DNA of 64,000 nt from Thiotrichaceae bacterium (lineage in GTDB: Bacteria; Pseudomonadota; Gammaproteobacteria; Eutrophobiales; Eutrophobiaceae), in assembly GCA_012960105.1 (NCBI GenBank), contig DUBV01000051.1, positions 15,898 through 79,897 of the forward strand, read 5' to 3'. A program made the translations under genes and the position numbers. The notes beneath the pieces were generated by a model. The model was not told the origin of the DNA. It searched no databases and was given only the letters and a program-made list of their open reading frames with translations. Of the stretch, positions 12,370 to 57,720 are shown in pieces. Position 1 is the stretch's first letter, and the number at the start of each line of letters is the position of its first letter.

Positions 12370-13047
12370 ATGAAAATACTGGCAATAGATACAGCAACCG
12401 AAGCTTGTTCTGCGGCACTTGATATTAATGATAGTTGTAGTCAGCGTTTTGAAGTTGCTCCAAGACAACATACTGCTTTAATTCTACCAATGGTCGATGA
12501 ATTACTCAGTGAAGCTGGTATTCAAATAAATGAGCTTGATGCGATAGCCTTTGGACAAGGACCCGGTGCATTTACCGGTGTTCGTATCGCCATAGGTGTT
12601 GTTCAGGGGTTAGCTTTTGCCCATGACCTTCCGGTAATACCCATTTCAACACTAGCAGCATTGGCACAACACTTTGCCAAAGATCAAAACTGTGTGGCGA
12701 CAGCTATTGATGCTCGTATGCAGGAAATTTATTGGGGACTCTATAAAAAGAATGATTCCGGATTAATGCGACTCATTATTGAAGAAAGCGTTTGTGATCC
12801 GAGTGAAGCGATTATTCCTGCGGAGGGAGACTGGTTTGGTGCTGGTAGCGGCTGGAAAACATATTCAGAAGAACTGCAAACCAGATTGTCTAATAAATTT
12901 CTGGGCTTTAACGGTGATATTCTACCCACTGCTGAAGATATTATGACGTTAGCAAAGGCAGATTTACGAGCAGATAAGGCAATTTCAGTTGAACAGGCAA
13001 TGCCAACATACCTAAGGAATAAAGTTGCGATTAAATCACATAAATAA
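12370..13047 (+). CDS. tsaB: tRNA threonylcarbamoyladenosine biosynthesis protein TsaB (YeaZ)
   Basis: 225 aa, MKILAIDTATEACSAAL ... GQGPGAFTGVRIAIGVVQGLA. Confidence 0.9.
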   Translation: MKILAIDTATEACSAALDINDSCSQRFEVAPRQHTALILPMVDELLSEAGIQINELDAIAFGQGPGAFTGVRIAIGVVQGLAFAHDLPVIPISTLAALAQHFAKDQNCVATAIDARMQEIYWGLYKKNDSGLMRLIIEESVCDPSEAIIPAEGDWFGAGSGWKTYSEELQTRLSNKFLGFNGDILPTAEDIMTLAKADLRADKAISVEQAMPTYLRNKVAIKSHK

Positions 13048-13095: not shown

Positions 13096-13905
13096 TTATT
13101 CGAGCACATATACGACTTCCGTTTTTATATTTCCATCCTCTAGAAGCTCTAATTTTCTATATGCCGGTGGTTTATCATCTACGGCATAGACATCGCTTTC
13201 TGGCTTAAACTGTAAACACGTCGATGGTGTACCCAATAAGCGTACATTATTTCTCAACAATTCAAATTCTTGATGAATATGTCCCCATACAAGGGCACGA
13301 ACATGGTCAAATTTATCGATAATACTTAATAATTCCTTTGTGTTTGTTAACGACATTGCATCCATCCACGGGCTATTAATTGGTACAGGATGGTGATGCA
13401 GTGCTATTAAACAATGAGTATTGGCATGCGATGCGAGTGTCGTCTCTAAAAACTCAAGTTCGGAATTCGATAACTCACCACGATGCTCACCTTTGACACA
13501 AGTGTCTAATAGAATAATTAACCACTGCCCTGCTTTAATGACTTTACCGAGACCATATCCATTCATTGTCATGATCTCATTCAATATCTCAGGATCATCA
13601 TGATTACCTGGCAAACAAAAAACAGGAATACTTAAAGTCGATAGATGTTCAGATAATTTATGATAAGAGGTTTTTGTTGCTTCGTGAATCAAATCGCCCG
13701 TTAATAAAATCAAATCAGCATCGGATTCGTTTTCTCTTATATTGTCTATGACTTGAAGCAAACTAACAGAAGTATCAAAACCACTGAATAACGGAGCATC
13801 ATCATCAATAATGTGCGTATCGGTTATTTGAATTATTTTAATGGAACCGCCAGGCTTTATTAAAACTACAGTTCCCTTTTCATTCTTTTCTTTAGAATCA
13901 AACAT
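13096..13905 (-). CDS. cpdA: 3',5'-cyclic-nucleotide (cAMP) phosphodiesterase, class III metallophosphoesterase
   Basis: Colinear with E. coli CpdA/Icc: QITDTH, TGDL, LPGNHD, GELS..LEFLE, LHHHP, GHIHQE, LGTPSTCLQFKP, TEV. Confidence 0.9.
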   Translation of the reverse strand: MFDSKEKNEKGTVVLIKPGGSIKIIQITDTHIIDDDAPLFSGFDTSVSLLQVIDNIRENESDADLILLTGDLIHEATKTSYHKLSEHLSTLSIPVFCLPGNHDDPEILNEIMTMNGYGLGKVIKAGQWLIILLDTCVKGEHRGELSNSELEFLETTLASHANTHCLIALHHHPVPINSPWMDAMSLTNTKELLSIIDKFDHVRALVWGHIHQEFELLRNNVRLLGTPSTCLQFKPESDVYAVDDKPPAYRKLELLEDGNIKTEVVYVLE

Positions 13906-13973
13906 GAACTTCGATTGGTTTATTAAATTTGCCGAATAGAGATAGCTGAGGATAAAAAAGTTTTTTAATGCAC

Positions 13974-14852
13974 TTAACTATTGTATTGAAATATGGAATG
14001 CATTTCATCGGCAAAGCCTTTTAATTTACGTTTGCCCATGTAAGTATATTTTCCAGAATCAGTTTCTTTAATTACTTCGCTCATACTTTTCGTTAGCAAA
14101 CAACGGTTACGGTTTTTTAATTTTTTAATATATTTCCCAGGAACTTCAATATCACGAACCTGTGTTTTTTCTATTCGTGCAGCACGACAAATAGGTATGC
14201 CGGCTCGATCATGTCCATGACTAGGATGAGTTATGCCTGAATCAATTGCGATACGTATATTCGCAGGAAAAAGGTTCTCATTACTGCTTGCTTGCCAATC
14301 TAACAATCTTTTAACTGCTGAAACAGTCGGCACACAGGAATCAAAAACAGCAAGGTAACCATCGCCCATATGTTTTAATAACAATAATTTTTCCTGATCA
14401 TGGCCAATGATATTTGTACGCAACATTTGTGAAATATGATTGATTTCTTCGATATCTCTTTCCATCGAATCACAAATATCAACCAGGCAAACGCCATGAC
14501 TCATGCTGAGCTCATTATTCATTCCATGAAAAGTTTTTAAGGACTTGTCTTCGAAAAGCAGACCTTCTTTATCGCAGGGAGAAATCCAGAGCATCATGTC
14601 AGATAAAAGCACGCAGGTTTTCTCCTGCAGAGGAAGTTCCTGATTTTTAATTACTTTATTATGTAAAACGGTGCCATTAGAACTGCCTGTATCAATGAGA
14701 TCAATTTTACAATGTCTGCGTGATACACAATTACTTGAGCTACGTAAATCATTATCAGGATGTCGGCCAATATGAAAAGGTAAATGAACTTCTGTAAGCC
14801 ACATTGACCAGCCCATATCAAATTCCAACAAGGCTAACCGACGATTTGACAT
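13974..14852 (-). CDS. FHA domain protein fused to a class III adenylyl/guanylyl (nucleotidyl) cyclase-like domain
   Basis: 292 aa. The N-terminus is an FHA core (GRHPDNDL..VSRRHCKI..GSSNGTVLHNKVI). The C-terminus has CHD-like motifs: VCLVDICDSM (beta1, metal Asp), KHMGDGYLAVFDS (metal Asp), IRIAIDSGITH and GIPICRAARIEK (N-x-A-x-R-like). Confidence 0.6.
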   Translation of the reverse strand: MSNRRLALLEFDMGWSMWLTEVHLPFHIGRHPDNDLRSSSNCVSRRHCKIDLIDTGSSNGTVLHNKVIKNQELPLQEKTCVLLSDMMLWISPCDKEGLLFEDKSLKTFHGMNNELSMSHGVCLVDICDSMERDIEEINHISQMLRTNIIGHDQEKLLLLKHMGDGYLAVFDSCVPTVSAVKRLLDWQASSNENLFPANIRIAIDSGITHPSHGHDRAGIPICRAARIEKTQVRDIEVPGKYIKKLKNRNRCLLTKSMSEVIKETDSGKYTYMGKRKLKGFADEMHSIFQYNS

Positions 14853-15078
14853 TAACTGCTCCTGTACTTCCCAAAAAAATAAAAGGAATAAAGATTATTC
14901 TATTTTTATAATTATTTTATAAGATTAAGCATAGTTCATAAACCTATGCATAGCAGTTAAACTATCTTCTAAACAATTATTAATCAAGTCTTATTATTCA
15001 GTACCTTACAAGATTTATTTAAAAATAATGTCACCTATTAAATACATGTCTCTTATAGATGATATTTAAATAGATGTA

Positions 15079-16983
15079 CTAGTGGAAGAAGTTATACACA
15101 TCCTCTATATCATGTGTAATAGGCATTGCAGGTAAGGCATTGATCAATCGTTTTCCATAAGCTTTACTAACAATACGTTTATCACAAATAACACAAACAC
15201 CTCTATCGTTTACATCACGAATTAAACGCCCTATTCCTTGTTTCAAAGCTATGGCCGCTTGTGGCACTTGATAATCCATAAAAGCATTGCCGCCCTGTTT
15301 AGAAAAATAATTTAAACGAGCCTGTAATACAGGATCATCGGGACTAGCAAAAGGTAGTTTATCGATAATAACCAAAGACAAAGCCTCGCCTTTAACATCT
15401 ACTCCCTCCCAAAAACTACTCGTGCCTAATAGTACTGCGTGTTTGGTTTGTCGAAATTGACTTAACAATTCAGATCGCGGTGCACGACCTTGAATAAAAA
15501 TAGGATAGTCAATTGCTTCAGATAACGCTTTTGCGGCCTTATTCAACGCAGCGTGACTGGTAAATAGAACAAAGGCATGGCCTTCGCTGTGAGATAATAG
15601 TTTTATAGTTCTGTCTATAAACGCATCAAAAAAAGTTGGCTGATTCGGCTCGGGTAAATCAACAGGAAGATACAAACAAGTTTGCGTCTGATAATTAAAC
15701 GGACTACTCCATACTTCTGTTAAACATTCTTCAAGACCTAGCTGTCGATTAAAATGATCAAAACTATTGTTAATTGCCAGACTTGCCGAAGTAAAAATAC
15801 TTGTCGCATCATATTCCTTGAGTCTTTGTTGAAATGTTTCTGCGATATTAACTGGCGTTTTATTAAGATAAATATGATTACCGCGTATTTCTAACCAACG
15901 TATTGAATCTTCATTCTTTGTTTCCATATAAGAATCAATATAATTGTAATGCGCTTTTGCACGTTGCCAACAATTATCCAATAATTTTCCACGTTCACTT
16001 GTCGTCTCCAAAATATCTAGTACGACTTGATAAGCTTCTAATAATTTTGGCAACTCAGTTGATAAATTTGTTTTCTCCCAGGTTTCTTTCCAGTTCAGTC
16101 TCTGATCTCTACGACCAAACACTAAACGAACATCGCGTATCGTTTTTTCAAACTTAGCCGATGCTTCGATTAAACCTTGTATGTCTTTCGCTTCTTCACG
16201 AATCGCCGTTTTAATATCGGAAATCAATTCAAGTAACTGACGCGTACCCATGCTCTTACTAAAGTAGGTTGAAGCTAATTCTGGGATCTGATGCGCTTCA
16301 TCAAAAATAATAATATCTGCCAAAGGTAGTACTTCACCAAAACCACTTTCTCGTAAACCCATATCTGCCATCAACATGTGATGATTGGTAATCACCAAAT
16401 CAGATTCTAATGCTTTTTTTCTATTCTTAAATACAAAACAGGCATCAAATTCAGGACAACTTTGTCCTAAACAATTTTCTGTTGTCGAGGTGATTGTTGG
16501 CCGAATAACAGAGTTATCTTCAATCATTCCTAGTTCATTAATATCACCTGTTTTCGTTGACGACGACCATTGCACAACTTCTTGCAAGTCGGACATGTTT
16601 TGATAGCTTAAACCTTTACTATCATTAATTGCCGCATCTAGTCGTTGCAAGCATAGATAATTTGAACGACCTTTCAAAACCATGGTTGTAGCAGGCGAAG
16701 CTAAAGCTTCAAGCACCAGTGGCAAATCTTTTTGATAAAGTTGATCTTGTAAATGACGTGTGCCGGTAGAAACAATAACTTTTTGTCTTGATAACAATGC
16801 GGGCACCAGATAAGCCATGGTTTTGCCCGTACCTGTTCCTGCTTCACAAACCAGACTTTGTCCTTGATTAACGGCAGATAATATTTTCTCCGCCATATCT
16901 TGCTGTTCAGGACGGTGCTGATAACCTTCTATTAATTCGGACAATGCACCGCTATCAGAAAATACTTCTGCAACTGTTTTCAT
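15079..16983 (-). CDS. dinG: ATP-dependent DNA helicase, DinG/YoaA family (Rad3-like Fe-S helicase)
   Basis: 634 aa. Walker A (EAGTGTGKT), DEAH box (FDEAHQ), Fe-S Cys cluster region (CLGQSCPEFDAC), C-terminal helicase motifs. Its size matches YoaA. Confidence 0.8.
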   Translation of the reverse strand: MKTVAEVFSDSGALSELIEGYQHRPEQQDMAEKILSAVNQGQSLVCEAGTGTGKTMAYLVPALLSRQKVIVSTGTRHLQDQLYQKDLPLVLEALASPATTMVLKGRSNYLCLQRLDAAINDSKGLSYQNMSDLQEVVQWSSSTKTGDINELGMIEDNSVIRPTITSTTENCLGQSCPEFDACFVFKNRKKALESDLVITNHHMLMADMGLRESGFGEVLPLADIIIFDEAHQIPELASTYFSKSMGTRQLLELISDIKTAIREEAKDIQGLIEASAKFEKTIRDVRLVFGRRDQRLNWKETWEKTNLSTELPKLLEAYQVVLDILETTSERGKLLDNCWQRAKAHYNYIDSYMETKNEDSIRWLEIRGNHIYLNKTPVNIAETFQQRLKEYDATSIFTSASLAINNSFDHFNRQLGLEECLTEVWSSPFNYQTQTCLYLPVDLPEPNQPTFFDAFIDRTIKLLSHSEGHAFVLFTSHAALNKAAKALSEAIDYPIFIQGRAPRSELLSQFRQTKHAVLLGTSSFWEGVDVKGEALSLVIIDKLPFASPDDPVLQARLNYFSKQGGNAFMDYQVPQAAIALKQGIGRLIRDVNDRGVCVICDKRIVSKAYGKRLINALPAMPITHDIEDVYNFFH

Positions 16984-17063: not shown

Positions 17064-17258
17064 TTAATTAGTTTTGTTTGACCAGATTTCATCCTGTTCC
17101 AGGCCGTTTTGATCTGTCCACAGTAAATCTGATATTAATTTAAACTTAGCCAATGTCATCGCACCTTTTTTATTATTTTTCTTTTTTTCTTCCAGTTCAT
17201 CCAGAATAATATCTCTTTTAGCCATGTAAATTTCTTCCGGCATAAAATCAGCATTCAT
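17064..17258 (-). CDS. Hypothetical small protein (possibly C-terminal part of a frameshifted gene)
   Basis: 64 aa. Its reading frame stays open upstream as far as 17384, overlapping the end of the preceding ORF in another frame. Confidence 0.3.
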   Translation of the reverse strand: MNADFMPEEIYMAKRDIILDELEEKKKNNKKGAMTLAKFKLISDLLWTDQNGLEQDEIWSNKTN

Positions 17259-17296
17259 AATAACCAGAATAATGGCATCCCATTCCTGTTCGGTTT

Positions 17297-17560
17297 TTAA
17301 TTGTCCAAGTCGATGCCCTTGTTTCTTCTCATTAAAATAGCTCGACCTTTGATCTGAACTTTTAAATGCTCGCCATCTTTTTCAAAAACAGCATCATAAC
17401 CGGGAATATTTTCATCATTAGGAAGTAACTTAAGAATAGAAATAGCATCCTGTATCGCTATTTCAGGCGTAACAGGCAATGTTTTACCAATGGCAAGACG
17501 ATATTCTTTAGCAATACGACGGGTCTCAGCAATTAGCTTATCAACTGAATAAATACCCAT
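17297..17560 (-). CDS. Hypothetical small protein
   Basis: 87 aa ORF immediately downstream of epmA on the same strand. No recognisable motif. Confidence 0.35.
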   Translation of the reverse strand: MGIYSVDKLIAETRRIAKEYRLAIGKTLPVTPEIAIQDAISILKLLPNDENIPGYDAVFEKDGEHLKVQIKGRAILMRRNKGIDLDN

Positions 17561-21028: not shown

Positions 21029-23281
21029 CTACGGCTCAGGTTTAATTCTAATTACGTTTCTGTAACCTCGAGTCAACATATTTCCTCGTCGACCACGTTC
21101 ACCAATATAATACTCTTGATCTGCTGATTTCAGCGTCACATGCTTTTTACCCGAGTAAACAACTAACTTATCAGTTTCCCCCATTGCCGTTATAGCAATA
21201 ACATATTCCTCACGTGTTTTAAATTTTGCTGGTGGTATTTGAATGATTTTCAGACCTTTTCCTTTTGGTAATAAAGTCAATTCACTAATTGGAAACATCA
21301 ACATACGTCCTATTGACGTTACTGCTGCGACCCAATCATTTTTAATATCATTAACTTTGCTTGGAGCTAAAACTTTTCCGCCTTTCGGTACGGATATAAT
21401 TGACTTACCATTTCTATTTTTTGTATAAATATCTTCAAGCTTAACCATAAAGCCATAACCCGCATCTGAAGCAACAAGATATATAGTATCAGGATCGCCG
21501 GCCATAACACCTTCAAAAGTAACACCATCCGGCGGTGTTAAACGAGCAGAGATCGGCTCACCTAAACTTCGTGCTGAAGGTAAAGAATGTGCCGGCAACG
21601 AATAACAGCGTCCACTTGAATCAACAAAGACAGCAAGCTGATTACTTCTGCCTAAGCTTGCCTGTTTAAAACTATCACCACTTTTATAATTTAATGTTTC
21701 TGGATCAACTTCATGTCCTTTAGCCGCCCTCACCCAACCTTTGTCTGAAAGTACAATTGTGACCGGCTCTGTTGGAACAAGACTAGTCTCATCGATAGCT
21801 TTCGCTTCTACGCCTTCTTTTAATGGTGACTTGCGAGCATCACCGTACTCTTTCGCATCAGCTTCGATTTCTTTTCTTACTAAAGTTTTTAAGCGTTGAT
21901 TAGAACCTAAAATTTTATCTAGCTCTTTACGTTCTTTACTTAACTCAGCTAGTTCACCTTTGATCTTGATCTCTTCAAGTTTAGCTAACTTACGTAATTT
22001 TAAATCAAGAACTGCATCAGCCTGAATATCACTTAACTTAAAGCGTTTCATTAATACCGCTTTCGGTTTATCTTGTTCACGAATGATTTGAATTACTTCA
22101 TCAATATTCAGATAAGCAATCATCAAACCTTCGAGCATATGAATTTGCGCAAGAATCTTATCTAAACGGAATTGTAATCTTCTACGTACCGTTTCTGTTC
22201 TGTACTCCAACCATTCTTTCAAGATACCCCTTAGATCTTTAACTTGAGGACGACCATTCAAACCAATGATATTTAAATTAACGCGATAACTGCGTTCAAG
22301 ATCAGTAGTTGCGAATAAGTGCAACATCACCTCTTGAAGATTAATACGATTAGAACGAGGAATAAGAATGAGTCGAATTGGATTTTCATGATCGGATTCA
22401 TCACGCAAATCTTCCAACATGGGTAATTTTTTCGCCTGCATCTGTGCGGCAATTTGTTCTAGTATTTTGCTCCCGGAACTTTGATGCGGCAGCGCAGTGA
22501 CAACAATATTGCCATCTTCCTTTTCCCAAATAGCACGCATTTTGATCGAACCGTGTCCAGTTTCATACATTTCTTGTATGGCTGACTTGGGTGTAATAAT
22601 TTCAGCCTTCGTCGGATAATCTGGTCCTTTAATATGTTTGCAGAGTTCTTTAACAGTGCTCTTGGGAGATTCCAGTAAACGAATACAAGCACTAGCAACT
22701 TCTTTGAGATTATGCGGTGGAATATCGGTTGCCATTCCAACAGCAATACCCGTAGTTCCATTTAGGAGAATATTCGGTAAACGTGCAGGTAATATTTTTG
22801 GCTCTTCTAATGTCCCATCAAAATTTGGAGTCCAATCAACGGTGCCCTGACTCACTTCACCAAGTAAAACATCAGCATAAGGTGTGAGTTTTGATTCGGT
22901 GTATCTCATGGCAGCAAAGGACTTAGGATCATCCATCGAACCCCAGTTGCCTTGACCGTCGATCAAAGGATAACGATAGGAAAAATCCTGTGCCATCAAG
23001 ACCATGGCTTCATAACAGGCAGAATCACCATGCGGGTGAAATTTACCCAATACATCACCGATAGTACGAGCAGATTTTTTATACTTCGCTGTTGCTTTTA
23101 AACCCAATTCCGACATGGCATAAACAATTCGTCGTTGCACCGGTTTCAGACCATCACCGATATGCGGTAAAGCACGGTCGAGAATGACGTACATTGAATA
23201 ATCCAGATAAGCCTTCTCGGTAAATTCCTGTAACGGTTGTTGTTCGTTTTGCTCGAAGTCAAAACTCATTGAATCTGGCAC
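21029..23281 (-). CDS. parC: DNA topoisomerase IV subunit A
   Basis: 750 aa GyrA/ParC family with the catalytic Tyr region (AAMRYTE). Its size and lack of a GyrA box, plus the adjacent parE, favour ParC. Confidence 0.88.
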
Positions 23282-23377
23282 TAAAATTTCCTCTAATTAA
23301 TATTATTTTATTAATATAATATATTGATACCTATATGATTTTACTTTTAATATATGGTAATAATCATTCTTTTCAAT

Positions 23378-25282
<1,905 letters not shown>

Positions 25283-29244: not shown

Positions 29245-29817
29245 ATGACACCATTAATTTTACGACTTGATATTGCAGGCTCGCCAATAAGGTGGATTCC
29301 ATGGCAAAATGCCGTAAATCTGTATGCTCGTGAAATGATAGCCTGGACCGCGGGTGATAGCCTATTTACCTTTCATGGTGGAACTAGCCGGTTATCCGGC
29401 GAACGTTCCATAGTCAAAATAAATTCCATTATCGCAGTCAAACGCTCTACTCGCATTAAGCATGGCAAACGCACTATTCCACCATTAACCAATAGAGAAT
29501 TGTTTCTACGTGATGCTTATTTATGCATGTATTGTGGTAGTGAGTTTCACAAGAATTTATTAACCCGTGACCATGTCATTCCCATCTCAAAGGGTGGAAT
29601 AGACAGATGGTCAAATGTCGTCACCGCATGTCGTTATTGCAATACCAAAAAAGCAAATCGCAACCCTGAAAAAGCGCATATGCCACTACTAGCGGTTCCT
29701 TTTGTACCTAATTGGGCTGAATATCTTGCTTTATCAAACAGAAGAATCCTTGCGGATCAAATGGAATTCCTGAAAAATCAATTTTCAGGTCGAAGCATGT
29801 TGTTGCTTAGCAATTAA
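29245..29817 (+). CDS. HNH endonuclease family protein
   Basis: 190 aa. C-terminal HNH motif CMYCGSEFHKNLLTRDHVIPISKGGIDRWSNVVTACRYCNTKK (CxxC..H..H..CxxC). Confidence 0.7.
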   Translation: MTPLILRLDIAGSPIRWIPWQNAVNLYAREMIAWTAGDSLFTFHGGTSRLSGERSIVKINSIIAVKRSTRIKHGKRTIPPLTNRELFLRDAYLCMYCGSEFHKNLLTRDHVIPISKGGIDRWSNVVTACRYCNTKKANRNPEKAHMPLLAVPFVPNWAEYLALSNRRILADQMEFLKNQFSGRSMLLLSN

Positions 29818-42148: not shown

Positions 42149-43081
42149 ATGTCAGACATAGAAATATATCAAAAACTCTCTGCCAATATTGAAAAAGTAA
42201 TACAGGGACAGTCTATATCGATTAGAAAACTCCTGGCCGCATTCTTTAGCAATGGGCATGTCTTGCTTGAAGATGTTCCCGGCACCGGTAAAACGACGCT
42301 GGCAAAGGCGCTAGCAAAATCTATCGATATCGAATTCCAGCGTATACAGTTTACACCCGATTTATTGCCTACCGATATTCTTGGGGTATCTATTTTCAAT
42401 CAACGTGACCATGATTTTGAGTTTCATCAAGGTCCCATATTCAGCAATATACTACTGGCAGATGAAATCAATCGTGCTTCGCCACGCACACAATCAGCGT
42501 TACTAGAAGCCATGGGCGAACGTCAGGTCAGTATTGAACGCAATCAATATCAGCTAGATGAGTTATTTTTTGTTATTGCCACACAAAATCCGATTGAATA
42601 TCACGGCACCTATCCTCTACCCGAGGCACAAATGGATCGTTTTGCTATGCGATTTGGACTTGGCTATGTCAATCCGGAAGAAGAAATTGCCATACTCGAT
42701 AATCAAAGCAGTCATCACCCTATTGATGATCTAACACCCTGCATTAGTAAAACCGATGTTATTCACCTAAAACAACACGTTACTAAAATTAACATCAGTG
42801 ATGAAGTTAAACATTACATGGTTAACCTTGTACGAGCGACCCGAGAAACAGAAGGAATTATCAATGGTGCCAGCCCACGTGCCTCACTATCGTTAATGAA
42901 AGCAGCGCAAGCACTAGCCTTGTTTGATGGCCTGGATTATGTCACGCCTGATCATGTGCAGGAAATAGCCATTCCTATCATGTCACATCGTATCATGATG
43001 GATTCACAAGCGCGTTTCTCTGGCAATAGCAGCGATCAAATTATTGAAGCGATCCTGTCCAACATAGCTGTTCCCACTTAG
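42149..43081 (+). CDS. MoxR family AAA+ ATPase
   Basis: 310 aa with Walker A GVPGTGKTT, Walker B LLADEINRASPRTQSALLEAM and sensor motifs. Confidence 0.88.
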   Translation: MSDIEIYQKLSANIEKVIQGQSISIRKLLAAFFSNGHVLLEDVPGTGKTTLAKALAKSIDIEFQRIQFTPDLLPTDILGVSIFNQRDHDFEFHQGPIFSNILLADEINRASPRTQSALLEAMGERQVSIERNQYQLDELFFVIATQNPIEYHGTYPLPEAQMDRFAMRFGLGYVNPEEEIAILDNQSSHHPIDDLTPCISKTDVIHLKQHVTKINISDEVKHYMVNLVRATRETEGIINGASPRASLSLMKAAQALALFDGLDYVTPDHVQEIAIPIMSHRIMMDSQARFSGNSSDQIIEAILSNIAVPT

Positions 43082-43097
43082 GACAGAGATTAAAAGC

Positions 43098-44441
43098 ATG
43101 TTACGTAGACTGCTGTTTGCAAACTTCAAACTGGTTTACAAACTAAGTCAATGGATGCGACAACGTTTTACCGCTGCCGGCATGTTAATCCTTTTAACCA
43201 TGCCTGTTGCTGGCGTGTTTGGCTTTGATACGCGCTCGACACTTTCCTTCCAAATATTCTCTATTACCTTAATACTTTTAATTACCTCAATTAGTTTTTC
43301 ATTATTATTTCGAGGAAAGTTTTCTATCGATAGAAAATTACCCGACTACGGCACAGTCGGCACAGCTTTGTATTATTCTTGCGCAATTAAAAATAATAAT
43401 AAAAAACCACGTAAAGGTTTGGTGTTGATTGATGATTTAAATAGTCCGTTTCCGACATTGGATGAATTTATTCATGCAAAAGATCCACTAGATAAGATTC
43501 GCAATCGTGTCGATCGAATTATGGGTTACCCGCGATTAATGAACACCATAAGAAAACTACGCGGCGCTGCCATAGCGCCCGTGTCAATTGACTATATTGC
43601 TGAAAATAGCGAAACAGAAGAAAACATTAAACTAATCCCCTTGCGTAGAGGCTATCTTTATTTCGAAAAAATCAGGTTAGCCCAAGCTGACCCATTGGGT
43701 TTATTTCAAGCACAAAAAATATTTAAGAAAAAAGATAAATTATTAATACTGCCTAAATTATATAAAACGCCTACTCTAAACACGCATGGTAAACGCACCT
43801 ATCAACAAGGTGGCATCAATAACGCGTCATCAATCGGCGATTCACAAGAGTTTATTTCTCTACGCGATTATCGACCCGGCGATCCTATTCGTTCTATACA
43901 TTGGAAAAGCTTTGCCAAAACAAACCACCTTGTTGTTAAAGAATATAATGATGAATTCTTTATCCGTTATGGCCTAATCCTCGATACTTGGCTTGACGAT
44001 AAATCAGAAGACATATTCGAAGATGCCATTTCTATAGCAGCATCATTTATGACCGCACAAAAAGAACAAGATGCCCTGTTAGATTTAATGTTTATAGGTA
44101 ACAACACCTATCGATTTACATCAGGTCGTGGCTTAGGCGGGACAGAGAACATCATGGAAGTACTTGCTTGTATAAAGCCTGTCTATGAAAGCAATATAAA
44201 AAGCATGGAAGTCATGCTGAACGAGTATATGCATGAATGTAGTGCCTTAATATGCATTTTGCTGGATCTTGACAAACCCCGCCAACGATTATTAAGAACC
44301 CTTGCTAGCTATAACGTACCTATAAAAGTATTAATCATTAGCGATACTGAAAAATTAGAAATAGTATACATCCCGCACTTAACTGATATCAATGTCATTC
44401 ATCATGATCGCTTACAACAAGATCTCGATGTCCTGTCGTAA
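43098..44441 (+). CDS. DUF58 domain protein (vWA-like, MoxR partner)
   Basis: 447 aa with N-terminal TM segments and a DUF58 core (DYRPGDPIRSIHWKSFAKTNHLVVKEY). Confidence 0.75.
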   Translation: MLRRLLFANFKLVYKLSQWMRQRFTAAGMLILLTMPVAGVFGFDTRSTLSFQIFSITLILLITSISFSLLFRGKFSIDRKLPDYGTVGTALYYSCAIKNNNKKPRKGLVLIDDLNSPFPTLDEFIHAKDPLDKIRNRVDRIMGYPRLMNTIRKLRGAAIAPVSIDYIAENSETEENIKLIPLRRGYLYFEKIRLAQADPLGLFQAQKIFKKKDKLLILPKLYKTPTLNTHGKRTYQQGGINNASSIGDSQEFISLRDYRPGDPIRSIHWKSFAKTNHLVVKEYNDEFFIRYGLILDTWLDDKSEDIFEDAISIAASFMTAQKEQDALLDLMFIGNNTYRFTSGRGLGGTENIMEVLACIKPVYESNIKSMEVMLNEYMHECSALICILLDLDKPRQRLLRTLASYNVPIKVLIISDTEKLEIVYIPHLTDINVIHHDRLQQDLDVLS

Positions 44442-44444
44442 GCT

Positions 44445-46439
44445 ATGAATAATATAAATATAAATATAAAAACAGTTAAAAATCGCTTAAAAGCAGCACC
44501 TCTGGGTTTAACCTTAGCAAGCTTACTACTATGGGGATGGCAAACAGACTATCTGTTTTATGCCATTATTATGGGTGTATTGCTAGAACTGCCCTACTTT
44601 ATAAAATGGCGAATTGAATTTAGTGAAAAGGATATCAATCAACTCGCCGATCTCAGCGGCATCCTATTTTTTATTGTTACTGTTTATGTCTTCGTAAACT
44701 ATTCATTTCAAGGAATATATAAAATCCTTGAATTGCTTCCATTTGCTTTAGTTATACTCATGCTTGCGCAAAATTACAGTATGCAAAATGGGATCAGAAC
44801 TTCAGCCTTGTTTATCAGTATCCGCCGTATGGGTAACAAAGCCGACTCTGATATTCTTTATGACACCAATATCAGCCTGCCTTATATTTTTCTTTGCTTG
44901 ATCTCAGCTAGCTCCGGCAATAAATATAACGAAGTGTTTTTCTTTTCTAGCTCTTTCATCATTGTATGGACACTCTGGGGATTAAGAGCAAAACACCATT
45001 CCATTATTTCCTGGCTTACACCGATAGCCATTGTCATATCCATATCATTCTTAACTCAACAAGGCTTACAGACTTTACAAAATAACGCAGAAATTTTCTT
45101 TCTCGATCTATTCGAGCAATATGGTTTTTCCAGTCGCGATCCAGATCGCGCCAGAACCACAATAGGTTCATTAGGACGATTAAAATTATCTGATCGTATT
45201 GTTTTAAGAATAAAATCAGACCATGAGCTAGACACGCCGCTCTATTTTCGAGAAACATCATACAGTCGCTATCACCACGGGACATGGAGCAATCCTCAAG
45301 TTGAATTCGATATCATAGAAAAAACTCCTGCAAAAAAAGAATGGCGTTTAAATAAACAATTAAATGACACTGGGAATTTTGATATCGCAATCTACTTGCA
45401 AGATCAGTCATCTATACTTCCCGTGCCAGATAATATAAACACATTATCCGGAAAAGATTTAATTCAGGTGGAAACTAGCATCTATGGTTCAACAAGAATC
45501 GAAGCACGTGAAGGCTGGATTAGTTATCGACTAGGATATTCTGACAAAGATTTTGTTGAAGTTGAACCTACGGCAGATGACTTAGTAATCCAACTCAACT
45601 ATCAAAATGATTTTAAACTAGTCGCAGAAGAATTAGAACTCTATACAAAATCACCAGAACAAATCATTAATACTGTAAAACAATATTTTAAAGATAACTT
45701 TTATTATTCGATCACACAAAATCAACGCTACACAAGAGGACAGTATTTAACAAAGTTTTTATTTAAAGATAAAAAAGGACACTGCGAATATTTTGCCACA
45801 GCCACCGCCCTACTTCTACGCGAAGCCGGCATACCTACACGCTATACCATAGGTTATTCAGTACAAGAATACAGCGCATGGCAAAAGATGTACTTAGTGC
45901 GTGCACGCCATGCACATTCATGGCTTAAATATTATATCAACGGAAAATGGCATAAGATGGATACAACACCATCAATATGGGCACCAATGGAAGCTGCAGA
46001 CAGAACCATAATGGAACCGTTCTTCGATCTACTTTCATATTTGCGCTATAAAATAACCGGCAGTGAAATTGAATCAAATACCGAGTCAAATGATTGGCTT
46101 ATATGGCTACTCATACCATTAATGGCATATTTAGTATGGCGCTTTTATAATAAACAACGAGTAGATACGAAAAAGACTCGCAACGATAATTTTGACACTA
46201 AACTAAAACGATTTGGTATGGACTCCCCTATTTATCCGCTATTACAAAATCTGGAACAAGAGGCAGCGACAAGACTACAGGGAGAAACATTAAGCAAATG
46301 GATAAAACGAATATTGCCAATAACAGAGGCAGAAAAATATCTCCAGTTGATTAAGTTACATAATCGTTATCGGTTTAATCCTGTTAGTAATAAGCGTCAT
46401 GACAAACAATCAATAAAAGAGCTATTAGATCGCGTCTAA
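44445..46439 (+). CDS. Transglutaminase-like membrane protein (DUF3488 + transglutaminase core, TgpA-like)
   Basis: 664 aa. Multi-TM N-terminus, Cys protease-like core (GHCEYFATATALLLREAGIPTRYTIGY, later H/D) and a C-terminal TM. Confidence 0.8.
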   Translation: MNNININIKTVKNRLKAAPLGLTLASLLLWGWQTDYLFYAIIMGVLLELPYFIKWRIEFSEKDINQLADLSGILFFIVTVYVFVNYSFQGIYKILELLPFALVILMLAQNYSMQNGIRTSALFISIRRMGNKADSDILYDTNISLPYIFLCLISASSGNKYNEVFFFSSSFIIVWTLWGLRAKHHSIISWLTPIAIVISISFLTQQGLQTLQNNAEIFFLDLFEQYGFSSRDPDRARTTIGSLGRLKLSDRIVLRIKSDHELDTPLYFRETSYSRYHHGTWSNPQVEFDIIEKTPAKKEWRLNKQLNDTGNFDIAIYLQDQSSILPVPDNINTLSGKDLIQVETSIYGSTRIEAREGWISYRLGYSDKDFVEVEPTADDLVIQLNYQNDFKLVAEELELYTKSPEQIINTVKQYFKDNFYYSITQNQRYTRGQYLTKFLFKDKKGHCEYFATATALLLREAGIPTRYTIGYSVQEYSAWQKMYLVRARHAHSWLKYYINGKWHKMDTTPSIWAPMEAADRTIMEPFFDLLSYLRYKITGSEIESNTESNDWLIWLLIPLMAYLVWRFYNKQRVDTKKTRNDNFDTKLKRFGMDSPIYPLLQNLEQEAATRLQGETLSKWIKRILPITEAEKYLQLIKLHNRYRFNPVSNKRHDKQSIKELLDRV

Positions 46440-52928: not shown

Positions 52929-54857
52929 ATGTCACTTGAATTTGAATTAGCTGGCTCACAAATTGATGGTGCTAGAGACTATCAAGAAGATGCGTTTCTT
53001 ATTACTCATCTAACCGATGCCGATGGTAAACCTAGCGCGCTGGTCATTATAGCTGATGGTATGGGTGGTCACGCTGCCGGTAATGTCGCTAGTAATATGG
53101 CTGTTCAAGCTTTCAATAAGCACGTATCCGCTAATTATCCCTCGAAAAGTATTCCCGACATACTCGAACAAGCTGTCGTTAAAGCAAATAATTCGATAAA
53201 AGAAACCGTTGCCGAAACCCCTGCTCTATCTGGCATGGGTTGTACCATGGTTGCCGCCATACTTGAAGAAGGAAAAATGTGGTGGGTCAGCGTTGGTGAC
53301 AGCCATTGTTACCTTATTAGAAATAAAGAATTAGCCAAGAAAAATGCGGATCATAGTTATGGTGGCTTTCTGGATCGTATGGAAGCAGAAGGCACACCGT
53401 TAGAAGCAGAACCAGGTTTGTCTCGTAATATGCTAATGAGTGCGGTTACTGGTGAAGACATCAATGAGATTGATGTTTCAGAAGAACCTTTTGAATTACA
53501 CGATGGTGATAAAGTACTTTTGTGCAGTGATGGTTTAGATACTTTAAGCGCTGGTAAAATTATTCAATATTCGGATTGGTCTGAATCTCCCAAAGAATGT
53601 GCTGACGCATTAATGACCGCAGTTGAAGAAGCTGACATGCCGCGCCAGGATAATACAACTGCGGTTGTAGTGAGCGTATTAAATAATGCAGTAACCCCAA
53701 CTCCCGTCGTTGAAAAACCAGAAGAAATTGGTGAAGCCACGGATGAAATTTCCCTAGAGGAAGTTACTACCGTTGAAGAATCATTAGCTGAAGCAATACA
53801 AAATGCAGCAGATCAAGAGGCTATTGATGACTTTGAAGAGCCCAAAAGTAAAACAGGTTTAATTATTGGTATTGTTGCCGTACTACTTATTGCTGGTGCA
53901 GGTGCCTTTTTCATGATGGGAGGAAAATCCTCGCAACCATCAGAACCTATGGTTGCTGACGTTGAAATGGAAGTTGTAGAAGATGAGGCTATTGAGGAAG
54001 AGGAAGAAGAAGTAGCTGAATCTAAAACAGAAGAAGTGAGCAAAGTTGTTGCTGAAGAAGAAAAGAAAGAACCTGTTGCAGCGATAGTAGAAACTAAAGC
54101 AGAAGTTAAAGAGTCTGAAGAAACATCAGGTAAAACAATTCAAGACGCTTTGAAATCTGGCGGAAAAGGTCCTGTGATGGTCATTATCCCGGCAGGTAAA
54201 TTCAATATGGGCAGTAAGAGCTCTAGAAATTCGGATCAACGCCCTCGTCATGAAGTAACTGTGGCTAAATTTGCTATTAGCCAACATGAAATCACTTTCG
54301 CTGAATATGATGTTTTTGCTAAAACGAAAGGCAAAAAGATTCCTGATTCACTTTATATGGATAGAGCTACATCTCCTGTAATTTATGTTCCTTGGGATAA
54401 CGCGTATGCATATACCAAATGGTTGTCTAAAGAAACAGGCAAAAAATACAGATTAGCTAGTGAAGCAGAATGGGAATACATGGCATCAACAGGTAAAAAG
54501 AGTCCGTTCTGGTGGGGTTATAAAGAAGAGCCTAACCGAGCTCACTGCTTTGGTTGCGGCACAGGTTTAAACCCCCGTAAACCAACTAAGGTGGGTAGTT
54601 TTGAGCCTAATGAATTTGGCGTATTTGATACTGCAGGCAATGTTAGCGAATGGGTTTATGATTGCTGGCACAAAAATTACAAGGACGCACCAACAGAAGC
54701 TGAAGTATGGGAAGGTGGTGATTGTACTTTTCGTGCTGTCAGAGGTGGCGCCTACAGTACTCCGCCACAATCTATTCAGCATATAAAACGCGACAAGTTT
54801 AAATCCGATAAAGCCTACGACCATATCGGTATTCGTGTCCTTAGAGAGATTCCTTAG
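52929..54857 (+). CDS. Membrane-spanning PP2C-family Ser/Thr phosphatase fused to a C-terminal FGE-sulfatase (SUMF1/formylglycine-generating-enzyme-like) domain
   Basis: 642 aa. Residues 1-250 are PP2C (ADGMGGHAAGNVAS, VSVGDSHCYL, LLCSDGL, NTTAVVV). An acidic linker contains one TM segment (GLIIGIVAVLLIAGAGAFFMMGG). Residues 400-642 are the FGE-sulfatase domain (YRLASEAEWEYMA, GNVSEWVYDCW, RAVRGGAY). Confidence 0.8.
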   Translation: MSLEFELAGSQIDGARDYQEDAFLITHLTDADGKPSALVIIADGMGGHAAGNVASNMAVQAFNKHVSANYPSKSIPDILEQAVVKANNSIKETVAETPALSGMGCTMVAAILEEGKMWWVSVGDSHCYLIRNKELAKKNADHSYGGFLDRMEAEGTPLEAEPGLSRNMLMSAVTGEDINEIDVSEEPFELHDGDKVLLCSDGLDTLSAGKIIQYSDWSESPKECADALMTAVEEADMPRQDNTTAVVVSVLNNAVTPTPVVEKPEEIGEATDEISLEEVTTVEESLAEAIQNAADQEAIDDFEEPKSKTGLIIGIVAVLLIAGAGAFFMMGGKSSQPSEPMVADVEMEVVEDEAIEEEEEEVAESKTEEVSKVVAEEEKKEPVAAIVETKAEVKESEETSGKTIQDALKSGGKGPVMVIIPAGKFNMGSKSSRNSDQRPRHEVTVAKFAISQHEITFAEYDVFAKTKGKKIPDSLYMDRATSPVIYVPWDNAYAYTKWLSKETGKKYRLASEAEWEYMASTGKKSPFWWGYKEEPNRAHCFGCGTGLNPRKPTKVGSFEPNEFGVFDTAGNVSEWVYDCWHKNYKDAPTEAEVWEGGDCTFRAVRGGAYSTPPQSIQHIKRDKFKSDKAYDHIGIRVLREIP

Positions 54858-57252: not shown

Positions 57253-57720
57253 ATGCCTACAGAAATTGAACGAAAGTTTTTACTTAAAAATGATAGTTGG
57301 CGTAAAGGTGCTGACGAAGGTATGCATATGGTACAAGCCTATATGGGTAGCAATAACAAAAGTTCTATTCGGATTCGAATTCACGGTGATTCCGCAAATC
57401 TCAATATCAAAAGCAAGACCTTAGGCATACAGCGTAGTGAATATGAGTACCCTATTCCTTTGGATGAAGCCAAAGAAATGCTTGAATCACTTTGCGACAA
57501 ACCCTATATAGAAAAGACTCGTTTTCATGTAATACACGATGGTCATGAATGGGAAATCGATGTTTTTACTGGAGAAAATACTGGTTTAATCGTCGCTGAG
57601 CTGGAACTAGAATCTGTCGATGAGACTTTTACCAAACCCGATTGGCTAGGTAAAGAGGTCTCTGATGACCCTCGTTATTACAATATTTGTCTAGTGAATC
57701 ATCCATACAAAAATTGGTAA
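57253..57720 (+). CDS. CYTH domain protein (triphosphate tunnel metalloenzyme; CyaB/ThTPase-like)
   Basis: 155 aa starting MPTEIERKFLL (the EIERKFL signature of CYTH), with later acidic residues for metal binding. Confidence 0.75.
   Translation: MPTEIERKFLLKNDSWRKGADEGMHMVQAYMGSNNKSSIRIRIHGDSANLNIKSKTLGIQRSEYEYPIPLDEAKEMLESLCDKPYIEKTRFHVIHDGHEWEIDVFTGENTGLIVAELELESVDETFTKPDWLGKEVSDDPRYYNICLVNHPYKNW

Follow-up and report, generated by a model that had tools for sequence, protein, structure and literature searches.

The cyclase gene and its cyclase homology domain

We analyzed a 64-kb stretch of DNA (64,000 nucleotides of contig DUBV01000051.1, assembly GCA_012960105.1, Thiotrichaceae bacterium), hereafter the window, and focused on a minus-strand gene encoding a 292-residue protein (13974..14852; ATG at 14852-14850, TAA at 13976-13974). 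The protein contains an N-terminal FHA domain, a linker, and a C-terminal cyclase homology domain, and we refer to its gene as the cyclase gene. It is followed on the same strand by cpdA (13096..13905, 269 residues), encoding a 3',5'-cyclic AMP (cAMP) phosphodiesterase of class III, a metallophosphoesterase, and a spacer of 68 nucleotides (13906..13973) separates the stop codon of the cyclase gene from the first codon of cpdA. Both open reading frames (ORFs) lie where the first-pass annotation of this DNA, made from the sequence, had placed them. A ribosome-binding site, AGGAG (14859..14863, minus strand), lies 6 nucleotides 5' of the cyclase ATG, and the start call agrees with the N-terminus MSNRRLALLEF common to 40 homologue clusters.

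The cyclase homology domain covers residues 118-292 (13977..14501, minus strand). The AlphaFold model of the window protein, built with 28 homologues, has a predicted local distance difference test (pLDDT) score of about 85-90 over residues 119-290. When this model was searched against the PDB with Foldseek, all of the top 50 matches were class III cyclase domains. The best match was Ma1120 (4wp9, E 3.4e-9), followed by Rv1900c, with target-normalized template modeling (TM) scores of 0.74-0.79. A model of a 73%-identical homologue, P0013 (pLDDT 89.9, predicted TM score 0.86), gave the same cyclase fold; across models the E values went down to 1e-9 and the target-normalized TM scores up to 0.80. 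The domain is about 175 residues long, larger than the ~150 residues of the first-pass estimate and normal for domains of the Ma1120/Rv1900c type.

Sequence profiles connect the domain to the same enzymes. A single-sequence PDB search with the 292-residue protein returned FHA domains only, and a family profile restricted to the C-terminal domain reached Ma1120 at E 8e-4. Searched exhaustively against 1.84 billion representatives, the family profile gave 194 proteins at E<=1e-3, with intermediates at 1e-17 to 1e-5. We sampled 55 of the 194 matches, beyond ~17 close representatives; PF00211 recognizes 27 of these at E<=0.001 (best 2.4e-14), several of them above the cut-off of 21.9 bits. A joint profile of the family and the intermediates matched Ma1120 at 3.7e-25, the Silicibacter structure 3mr7 at 1.6e-21, and Rv1900c at 3e-18, and also reached mammalian AC5, AC8, and AC9. 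Models and profiles together show that the 292-residue protein's C-terminal domain has a class III cyclase fold. The fusion of FHA and class III cyclase domains that the first-pass annotation described is thus supported by the fold and by the intermediates, but not by Pfam and NCBIfam scans of the protein itself, which are empty for cyclase models.

The intermediates form a wider clade of divergent cyclases (P0059-P0188), marked by the first-metal motif D-x-C-x-S-T and the motif N-R-I-L. The fusion partners of their cyclase domains are TPR, HEAT, protein-kinase, receiver, or FHA modules, and PF00211 recognizes about half of these proteins.

The joint-profile alignment spans the whole cyclase domain and allows the active site to be read. 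The first metal-binding Asp is Asp125 (in 'TDIEEST' of Ma1120), and Asp164 is the Asp of the 'GDG' motif. In Ma1120, Lys101, Asp157, and Ala167 are the specificity residues, Ala164 occupies the position of the transition-state Asn, and Arg168 is the transition-state Arg (PMC4215837). We mapped these positions by comparing wild-type Ma1120 and its KDA->EGY triple mutant in the profile output, together with the same paper. Ma1120 K101/D157/A164/A167/R168 correspond to K160/D215/C222/A225/R226 of the window protein with identical spacing. Additional key residues of the domain, identified by residue mapping and census, include Arg200 and Lys278 as well as Ala225.

A census of 36 family members, down to 30% identity, shows strong conservation of this site. 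Asp125, Cys127, Lys160, Asp164, Arg200, and Arg226 are present in 36 of 36 members, and the Asp215 position holds Asp in 33 and Glu in 3. The position of the canonical Asn is the variable one, with Cys in 22 members, Asn in 7, Ser and Val in 2 each, and Tyr, Thr, and His in the remainder. Counted against the canonical set, 5 of 6 catalytic residues are conserved. Both metal-binding Asp residues named in the first-pass annotation are therefore present, while only half of its 'N/R motifs' stands: the Arg is there as Arg226, and the Asn is replaced by Cys222. That annotation also proposed that the substrate-specifying residues be read against class III cyclase structures. Because Lys160 and Asp215 align with Lys101 and Asp157 of Ma1120, this comparison predicts ATP as the substrate.

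The family is also rich in conserved cysteines. Cys127 (14472-14474, minus strand) lies two residues past the first metal-binding Asp and is common in the wider clade as well. Cys222 itself is encoded at 14187-14189 (minus strand), and the other invariant cysteines of the family are Cys48, Cys80, Cys122, and Cys251.

The FHA domain, the linker, and the window allele

The FHA domain comprises residues 1-100 (14553..14852, minus strand), with the signature G29-R30, S44-x-x-H47, and N59-G60. A Pfam scan of the 292-residue protein matched PF00498 at residues 27-79 with 31.7 bits, above the cut-off of 20.7, so the N-terminal FHA assignment of the first-pass annotation holds. The family profile matches the FHA domains of GarA/OdhI at E 6e-7. 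In Foldseek, the P0013 model superimposes on the GarA FHA domain with a TM score of 0.78 and a root-mean-square deviation (rmsd) of 2.0, and the EmbR FHA domain is also matched. The binding-loop signature is nearly invariant: Gly29, Arg30, Ser44, His47, and Gly60 are found in 36 of 36 family members and Asn59 in 35.

The clear FHA core of the first-pass annotation needs one correction. Its signature residues are all kept, but seven residues of the beta5-beta6 hairpin are absent from the window allele. They are missing from the window protein and from one variant 99% identical to it but present in all other homologues (295-308 residues), and the homologue alignment places the junction of the in-frame 21-nucleotide deletion between Leu52 and Ile53 (14694..14699, minus strand). 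The missing residues are RDNELCI in P0013, whose model has the hairpin strands at 48-53 and 56-61; they make up the turn and the greater part of strand beta6. In relatives, AT[TC]GAT direct repeats flank the 21 nucleotides, and the deletion is therefore consistent with slippage. The exact window protein is present on 12 contigs, so the allele is not an assembly artefact. Going by the P0013 model, the deletion shortens the FHA hairpin on the side facing away from the binding loops; it perhaps alters regulation and probably does not abolish it.

The two domains are joined by a variable, disordered linker (residues 101-117; 14502..14552, minus strand), with pLDDT below 50 in both the window and the P0013 models. 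The linker contains Thr107 (14532-14534, minus strand); of the 16 closest relatives listed, 15 retain it, although the residues around it vary. By analogy with the FHA-GGDEF enzyme DgcB, Thr107 is a possible self-phosphorylation or FHA-ligand site.

Genomic context and the question of a cyclase-phosphodiesterase module

The cyclase gene is flanked upstream by yoaA, a DinG-family helicase gene (15079..16983, minus strand; NF053712, 837.6 bits), from which it is separated by an AT-rich region of 226 nucleotides (14853..15078, minus strand) where its promoter is presumed to lie. On the far side of cpdA, the downstream neighbor is tsaB, on the opposite strand (12370..13047, plus strand; TIGR03725, 206.9 bits). 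The wider surroundings consist of housekeeping genes (aat, bpt, kdsB, lpxK, exbBD, lolCD, epmA, efp, parC, and parE), in line with the housekeeping neighborhood of the first-pass annotation, with efp-epmA and lolCD in the same block as yoaA and tsaB. That annotation also noted that no effector gene with a cNMP-binding domain is adjacent, and the neighbors are indeed yoaA, cpdA, and tsaB. A promoter scan called no promoter on the minus strand upstream of the cyclase gene, and the promoter and terminator scan was uninformative (8 promoter-like sites versus 11 expected, and a single terminator-like site inside coding sequence). No terminator is predicted in the 68-nucleotide spacer, and a tRNA scan of the window found none.

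The identification of cpdA is firm. The protein matches the NCBIfam equivalog NF008359 at 244.7 bits, above the cut-off of 225, and PF00149 at 66 bits, and it has 5 of 5 metallophosphoesterase motifs (DTH29, GD70, GNHD100, HHH170, and GHIH208). The first-pass annotation was right to call it a CpdA/Icc phosphodiesterase.

The order epmA-yoaA-cyclase-cpdA-tsaB-lolC is found in 6 metagenome-assembled genomes (MAGs) whose cyclase proteins are 69-75% identical to the window protein (one contig, L011, ends inside the cyclase gene). Because the neighboring proteins of these 6 closest MAGs are themselves 62-94% identical and the genomes are globally syntenic, we count them as one observation. More distant relatives have a different arrangement. 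The order is epmA-yoaA-cyclase-tsaB-lolC-lolD in P0031 (55% identity) and efp-epmA-yoaA-cyclase-methyltransferase-tsaB in P0033 (50% identity), both without cpdA at that position. In P0036, P0037, P0039, and P0040 (44-49% identity), the cyclase gene lies between pntB or yccA and serS, again without cpdA. The upstream neighbor remains yoaA in relatives down to 50% identity. The cyclase-cpdA adjacency is confined to the subclade of at least 69% identity and is absent in the 6 more distant contexts. The absence of cpdA in the 50-55% and 44-49% relatives indicates that the pairing is a single derived rearrangement. Judged from this gene order, the insertion of cpdA ahead of tsaB happened once, in the window subclade, and tsaB is the ancestral downstream neighbor. 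The adjacency is, on the same comparison, a recent, lineage-specific accident of gene order and not a conserved module. The cyclase gene itself is, by its distribution, vertically inherited as a single-locus gene in a small lineage of uncultured Gammaproteobacteria, in the block efp-epmA-yoaA-X-tsaB-lolCD, where X is the cyclase gene.

We note two further observations on cpdA. The relatives L004, L006, L007, L009, and L010 share an element, CAG(T/C)CATAAT(T/C)AG, in the cyclase-cpdA spacer, where the window spacer has diverged; its CATAAT-like sequence could be a -10 box for cpdA. Additionally, parC and parE are encoded at 21029-25267 (minus strand), about 8-10 kb from cpdA. In E. coli, cpdA lies beside parE, so that cpdA here may have moved little from an ancestral neighborhood.

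Other genes of the window may bear on cAMP or phospho-signaling. The 642-residue ORF at 52929-54857 (plus strand) encodes an N-terminal PP2C-type Ser/Thr phosphatase domain (PF13672 at 50 bits, PF07228, and PF00481) and a C-terminal FGE-sulfatase domain (PF03781, 162 bits). The search for a Hanks-type kinase led to this ORF, with a 650-residue member of the wider cyclase clade, P0119, matching it at 3.6e-11. The domain assignment points to Ser/Thr phospho-signaling in this genome, which could bear on the FHA domain. A 155-residue CYTH-domain protein (PF01928, 54 bits) is encoded at 57253-57720 (plus strand). The CYTH superfamily comprises class IV adenylyl cyclases of the CyaB type as well as triphosphatases, and this protein is a possible second cyclase in the window. 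A scan for CRP boxes (TGTGA-N6-TCACA, <=2 mismatches) gave 17 matches versus 29.6 expected, none of them in intergenic regions, and thus no evidence for cAMP-CRP feedback.

Three more loci are recorded here. At 17064-17560 (minus strand), two ORFs of 87 and 64 residues in different frames are the halves of a conserved 159-residue hypothetical gene, 76-79% identical to an intact copy (L004:3364-3843); the frameshift is either a pseudogene or a sequencing error. A stand-alone HNH endonuclease ORF of 190 residues (29245-29817, plus strand) has a MazG-family gene on one side and an aminotransferase gene on the other. At 42149-46439 (plus strand), a MoxR-type AAA_3 ATPase comes first, then a 447-residue protein without a Pfam match, and then a 664-residue transglutaminase-core protein.

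Function of the gene product and comparison with known systems

Sequence comparison and structure models make it reasonably probable that the gene product is a soluble class III adenylyl cyclase under FHA control, belonging to an Ma1120/Rv1900c-like subgroup, vertically inherited and not part of a coupled module with cpdA. The cyclase domain would act as a head-to-tail homodimer and make cAMP from ATP. The FHA domain would probably bind phosphothreonine, whether in a partner protein or in the protein's own linker at Thr107, and in this way control dimerization or activity; control through the linker is modeled on the FHA-GGDEF enzyme DgcB. CpdA would degrade the product, and a single cAMP pool would be shared by the two enzymes, which are evolutionarily uncoupled.

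Several results weigh against an active, regulated adenylyl cyclase. No Pfam or NCBIfam cyclase model matches the 292-residue protein, even at E<=1, and when 20 family members were scanned singly, only 3 reached PF00211, with a best E of 0.014. The canonical transition-state Asn is missing, with Cys222 in its place, and this Asn is essential in mammalian cyclases, as cited in PMC4215837. Confidence in the FHA part of the window model is low (pLDDT 34-45 at residues 30-58), and the deletion could disable the domain. In addition, Pfam scans and a search seeded with multi-domain relatives including kinase fusions found no Hanks-type kinase in the 64-kb window, and no cAMP receptor was seen in it.

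The missing Asn and the failure of PF00211 to recognize so divergent a domain, together with the database name 'FHA domain-containing protein', would also be expected if the cyclase-like domain were a dead pseudo-cyclase that serves as a nucleotide-binding or dimerization scaffold for an FHA adaptor. We consider this improbable. Both metal-binding Asp residues, the Lys, both Arg residues, and the Asp/Glu are kept in all 36 family members down to 30% identity, as one would expect where selection acts on an active site. Ma1120, the closest solved structure, works as an adenylyl cyclase with Ala in place of the Asn, and the A164N mutation drastically lowers its activity (PMC4215837). Rv1900c has His there in the profile alignment. 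Because Ma1120 is active with Ala at this position, activity of the window enzyme is still likely, by analogy and from its sequence, and Cys222 is not a strong argument against it. A still smaller chance is that the domain is active but makes a different signal: cGMP, cCMP or cUMP as the Pycsar enzyme PycC does, or cyclic di-GMP (c-di-GMP) as a GGDEF-type diguanylate cyclase such as DgcB does. The uridylate cyclase 8jsz is a weak match of the joint profile (4.4e-5), full-length DgcB is among the Foldseek matches, and Ma1120 has been crystallized with GTP as well as ATP according to its PDB entries. Adenylyl cyclases nevertheless outrank all other profile matches by many orders of magnitude, and Lys160/Asp215 is the ATP-specifying pair, which makes another nucleotide very improbable. 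The Pycsar or defense reading, which the first-pass annotation had raised as a pyrimidine-cyclase alternative, was rejected because the cyclase has no PADLOC match, its neighbors are yoaA, cpdA, and tsaB with no effector among them, and the Lys/Asp pair predicts ATP. A GGDEF diguanylate cyclase is likewise not supported: there is no GG[DE]EF motif, the hairpin reads M-G-D-G-Y, Pfam gives no GGDEF match, and in sequence searches the GGDEF chains 6hc1 and 6hbz align only via their FHA part (profile positions 27-76).

The remaining alternatives concern regulation. In the window lineage, the seven-residue deletion may have disabled the FHA domain, leaving a deregulated cyclase, constitutive or with dead regulation, or a decaying gene. 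The deletion takes most of strand beta6 as defined in intact P0013, the AlphaFold confidence collapses at residues 30-58 in the window protein and not in the homologue, and the nearby gene at 17064-17560 is frameshifted. We find this unlikely, as the deletion is in frame and at the hairpin tip opposite the binding loops, all signature residues are kept, the Pfam FHA threshold is still passed, the allele occurs on 12 contigs and has a variant of 99% identity, and the ORF is otherwise intact. Somewhat less unlikely, though still doubtful, is the model of the first-pass annotation, in which the cyclase and cpdA form a co-transcribed, self-contained module of coupled synthesis and degradation that would generate self-limiting, phosphorylation-gated cAMP pulses. 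The two genes are on the same strand, 68 nucleotides apart with no terminator predicted between them, cpdA is a true equivalog, and the adjacency is found in all 6 MAGs of the closest subclade. The insertion of cpdA exactly behind the cyclase gene, in the same orientation, could have been selected. The six genomes, however, are globally syntenic and represent one event, the 55% and 50% relatives have the cyclase gene between yoaA and tsaB without cpdA, and the four relatives of 44-49% identity have it at a different locus, also without cpdA. The CATAAT-like spacer element conserved in relatives could moreover be cpdA's own promoter. The reading as a self-contained module is therefore not supported.

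A more speculative extension of the FHA-regulated adenylyl cyclase starts from the conserved cysteines, and we give it little credence. Cys127 and Cys222 might face the same site in the head-to-tail dimer, and such a cysteine-lined active site would mark a mechanistically distinct class III branch whose cAMP synthesis depends on the redox state of thiols or on a softer metal ion, in addition to FHA phosphothreonine gating, possibly via Thr107 of the linker. In small-genome uncultured Gammaproteobacteria, an enzyme with this dual control would perhaps be a main source of cAMP.

All genomes carrying the family are MAGs of uncultured Gammaproteobacteria, one of them labeled Thiotrichaceae. Databases name the protein 'FHA domain-containing protein', and JGI once 'class 3 adenylate cyclase'; JGI names another member, P0016 (71% identical), 'L-fucose mutarotase/ribose pyranase (RbsD/FucU family)', which looks mis-annotated. 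On its sequence relationships, the window protein is a divergent, previously unannotated addition to a known FHA-cyclase architecture, so far found only in uncultured Gammaproteobacteria. Our analysis fills an annotation gap of about 40 protein clusters that public databases label as FHA only, yet contain a cyclase domain with a conserved core missed by Pfam and NCBIfam. The wider clade of similar domains, with its TPR, HEAT, kinase, and receiver fusions, is likewise only half recognized. If the enzyme is active, it would link Ser/Thr phosphorylation to cAMP in uncultured Gammaproteobacteria and would join Ma1120 as a second natural cyclase able to do without the 'essential' Asn. The case also calls for caution in reading function from a single gene adjacency, as the cyclase-phosphodiesterase pairing dissolves in relatives of 50-55% identity.

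Among known enzymes, Ma1120 of Mycobacterium avium and Rv1900c (LipJ) of M. tuberculosis are the closest to the window domain, as both the best fold matches (TM 0.74-0.80) and the best profile matches. They share with it a compact domain of about 165-175 residues, a first-metal motif of the D-I-x-x-S-T type, the GDG hairpin, and the K...D...x...A-R spacing. The canonical Asn is absent from both, replaced by Ala in Ma1120 and His in Rv1900c, and both are described as adenylyl cyclases. The window cyclase domain is only 15-18% identical to these enzymes. In its family, by contrast, the Asn position is Cys, and another Cys, an invariant one, stands two residues past the first metal-binding Asp, where Ma1120 has Glu. 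The regulatory partner differs as well: it is FHA in the window protein, and the solved Rv1900c chains bear the name of an alpha/beta-hydrolase-family protein.

Other proteins combine FHA and cyclase domains. Proteins of about 320 residues known from metagenomes (such as P0097, P0191, and P0193) have the same domain order and size as the window protein, their FHA domains pass Pfam, and they belong to the same divergent 'D-x-C-x-S-T' clade. Their cyclase domains are about 20-27% identical to that of the window protein, and they differ from it in being recognized by PF00211 and in mostly keeping Asn or His at the transition-state position. Synechocystis Cya1 (slr1991) presumably also joins an FHA domain to a cyclase; literature searches for a characterized FHA-class III cyclase found no paper stating that architecture. 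The adenylyl cyclase activity of Cya1 is proven, and the enzyme controls motility (PMC4284465).

DgcB of Bdellovibrio bacteriovorus (FHA-GGDEF, 6hbz) has, like the window protein, an N-terminal FHA domain followed by a palm-fold nucleotide cyclase that needs dimerization, and it is a whole-chain Foldseek match of the P0013 model at rank 3. DgcB is activated when its FHA domain binds a phosphorylated segment (tail) of DgcB itself (PMC6733907). Its catalytic domain is, however, a GGDEF domain, which makes c-di-GMP from 2 GTP, and not a class III cyclase homology domain, and the global superposition is poor (rmsd about 15 Å, TM about 0.3). Lastly, the window cpdA passes the equivalog cut-off and has all metallophosphoesterase motifs of the E. 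coli-type CpdA/Icc enzymes, and it differs from the E. coli-type context in sitting behind a class III cyclase gene.

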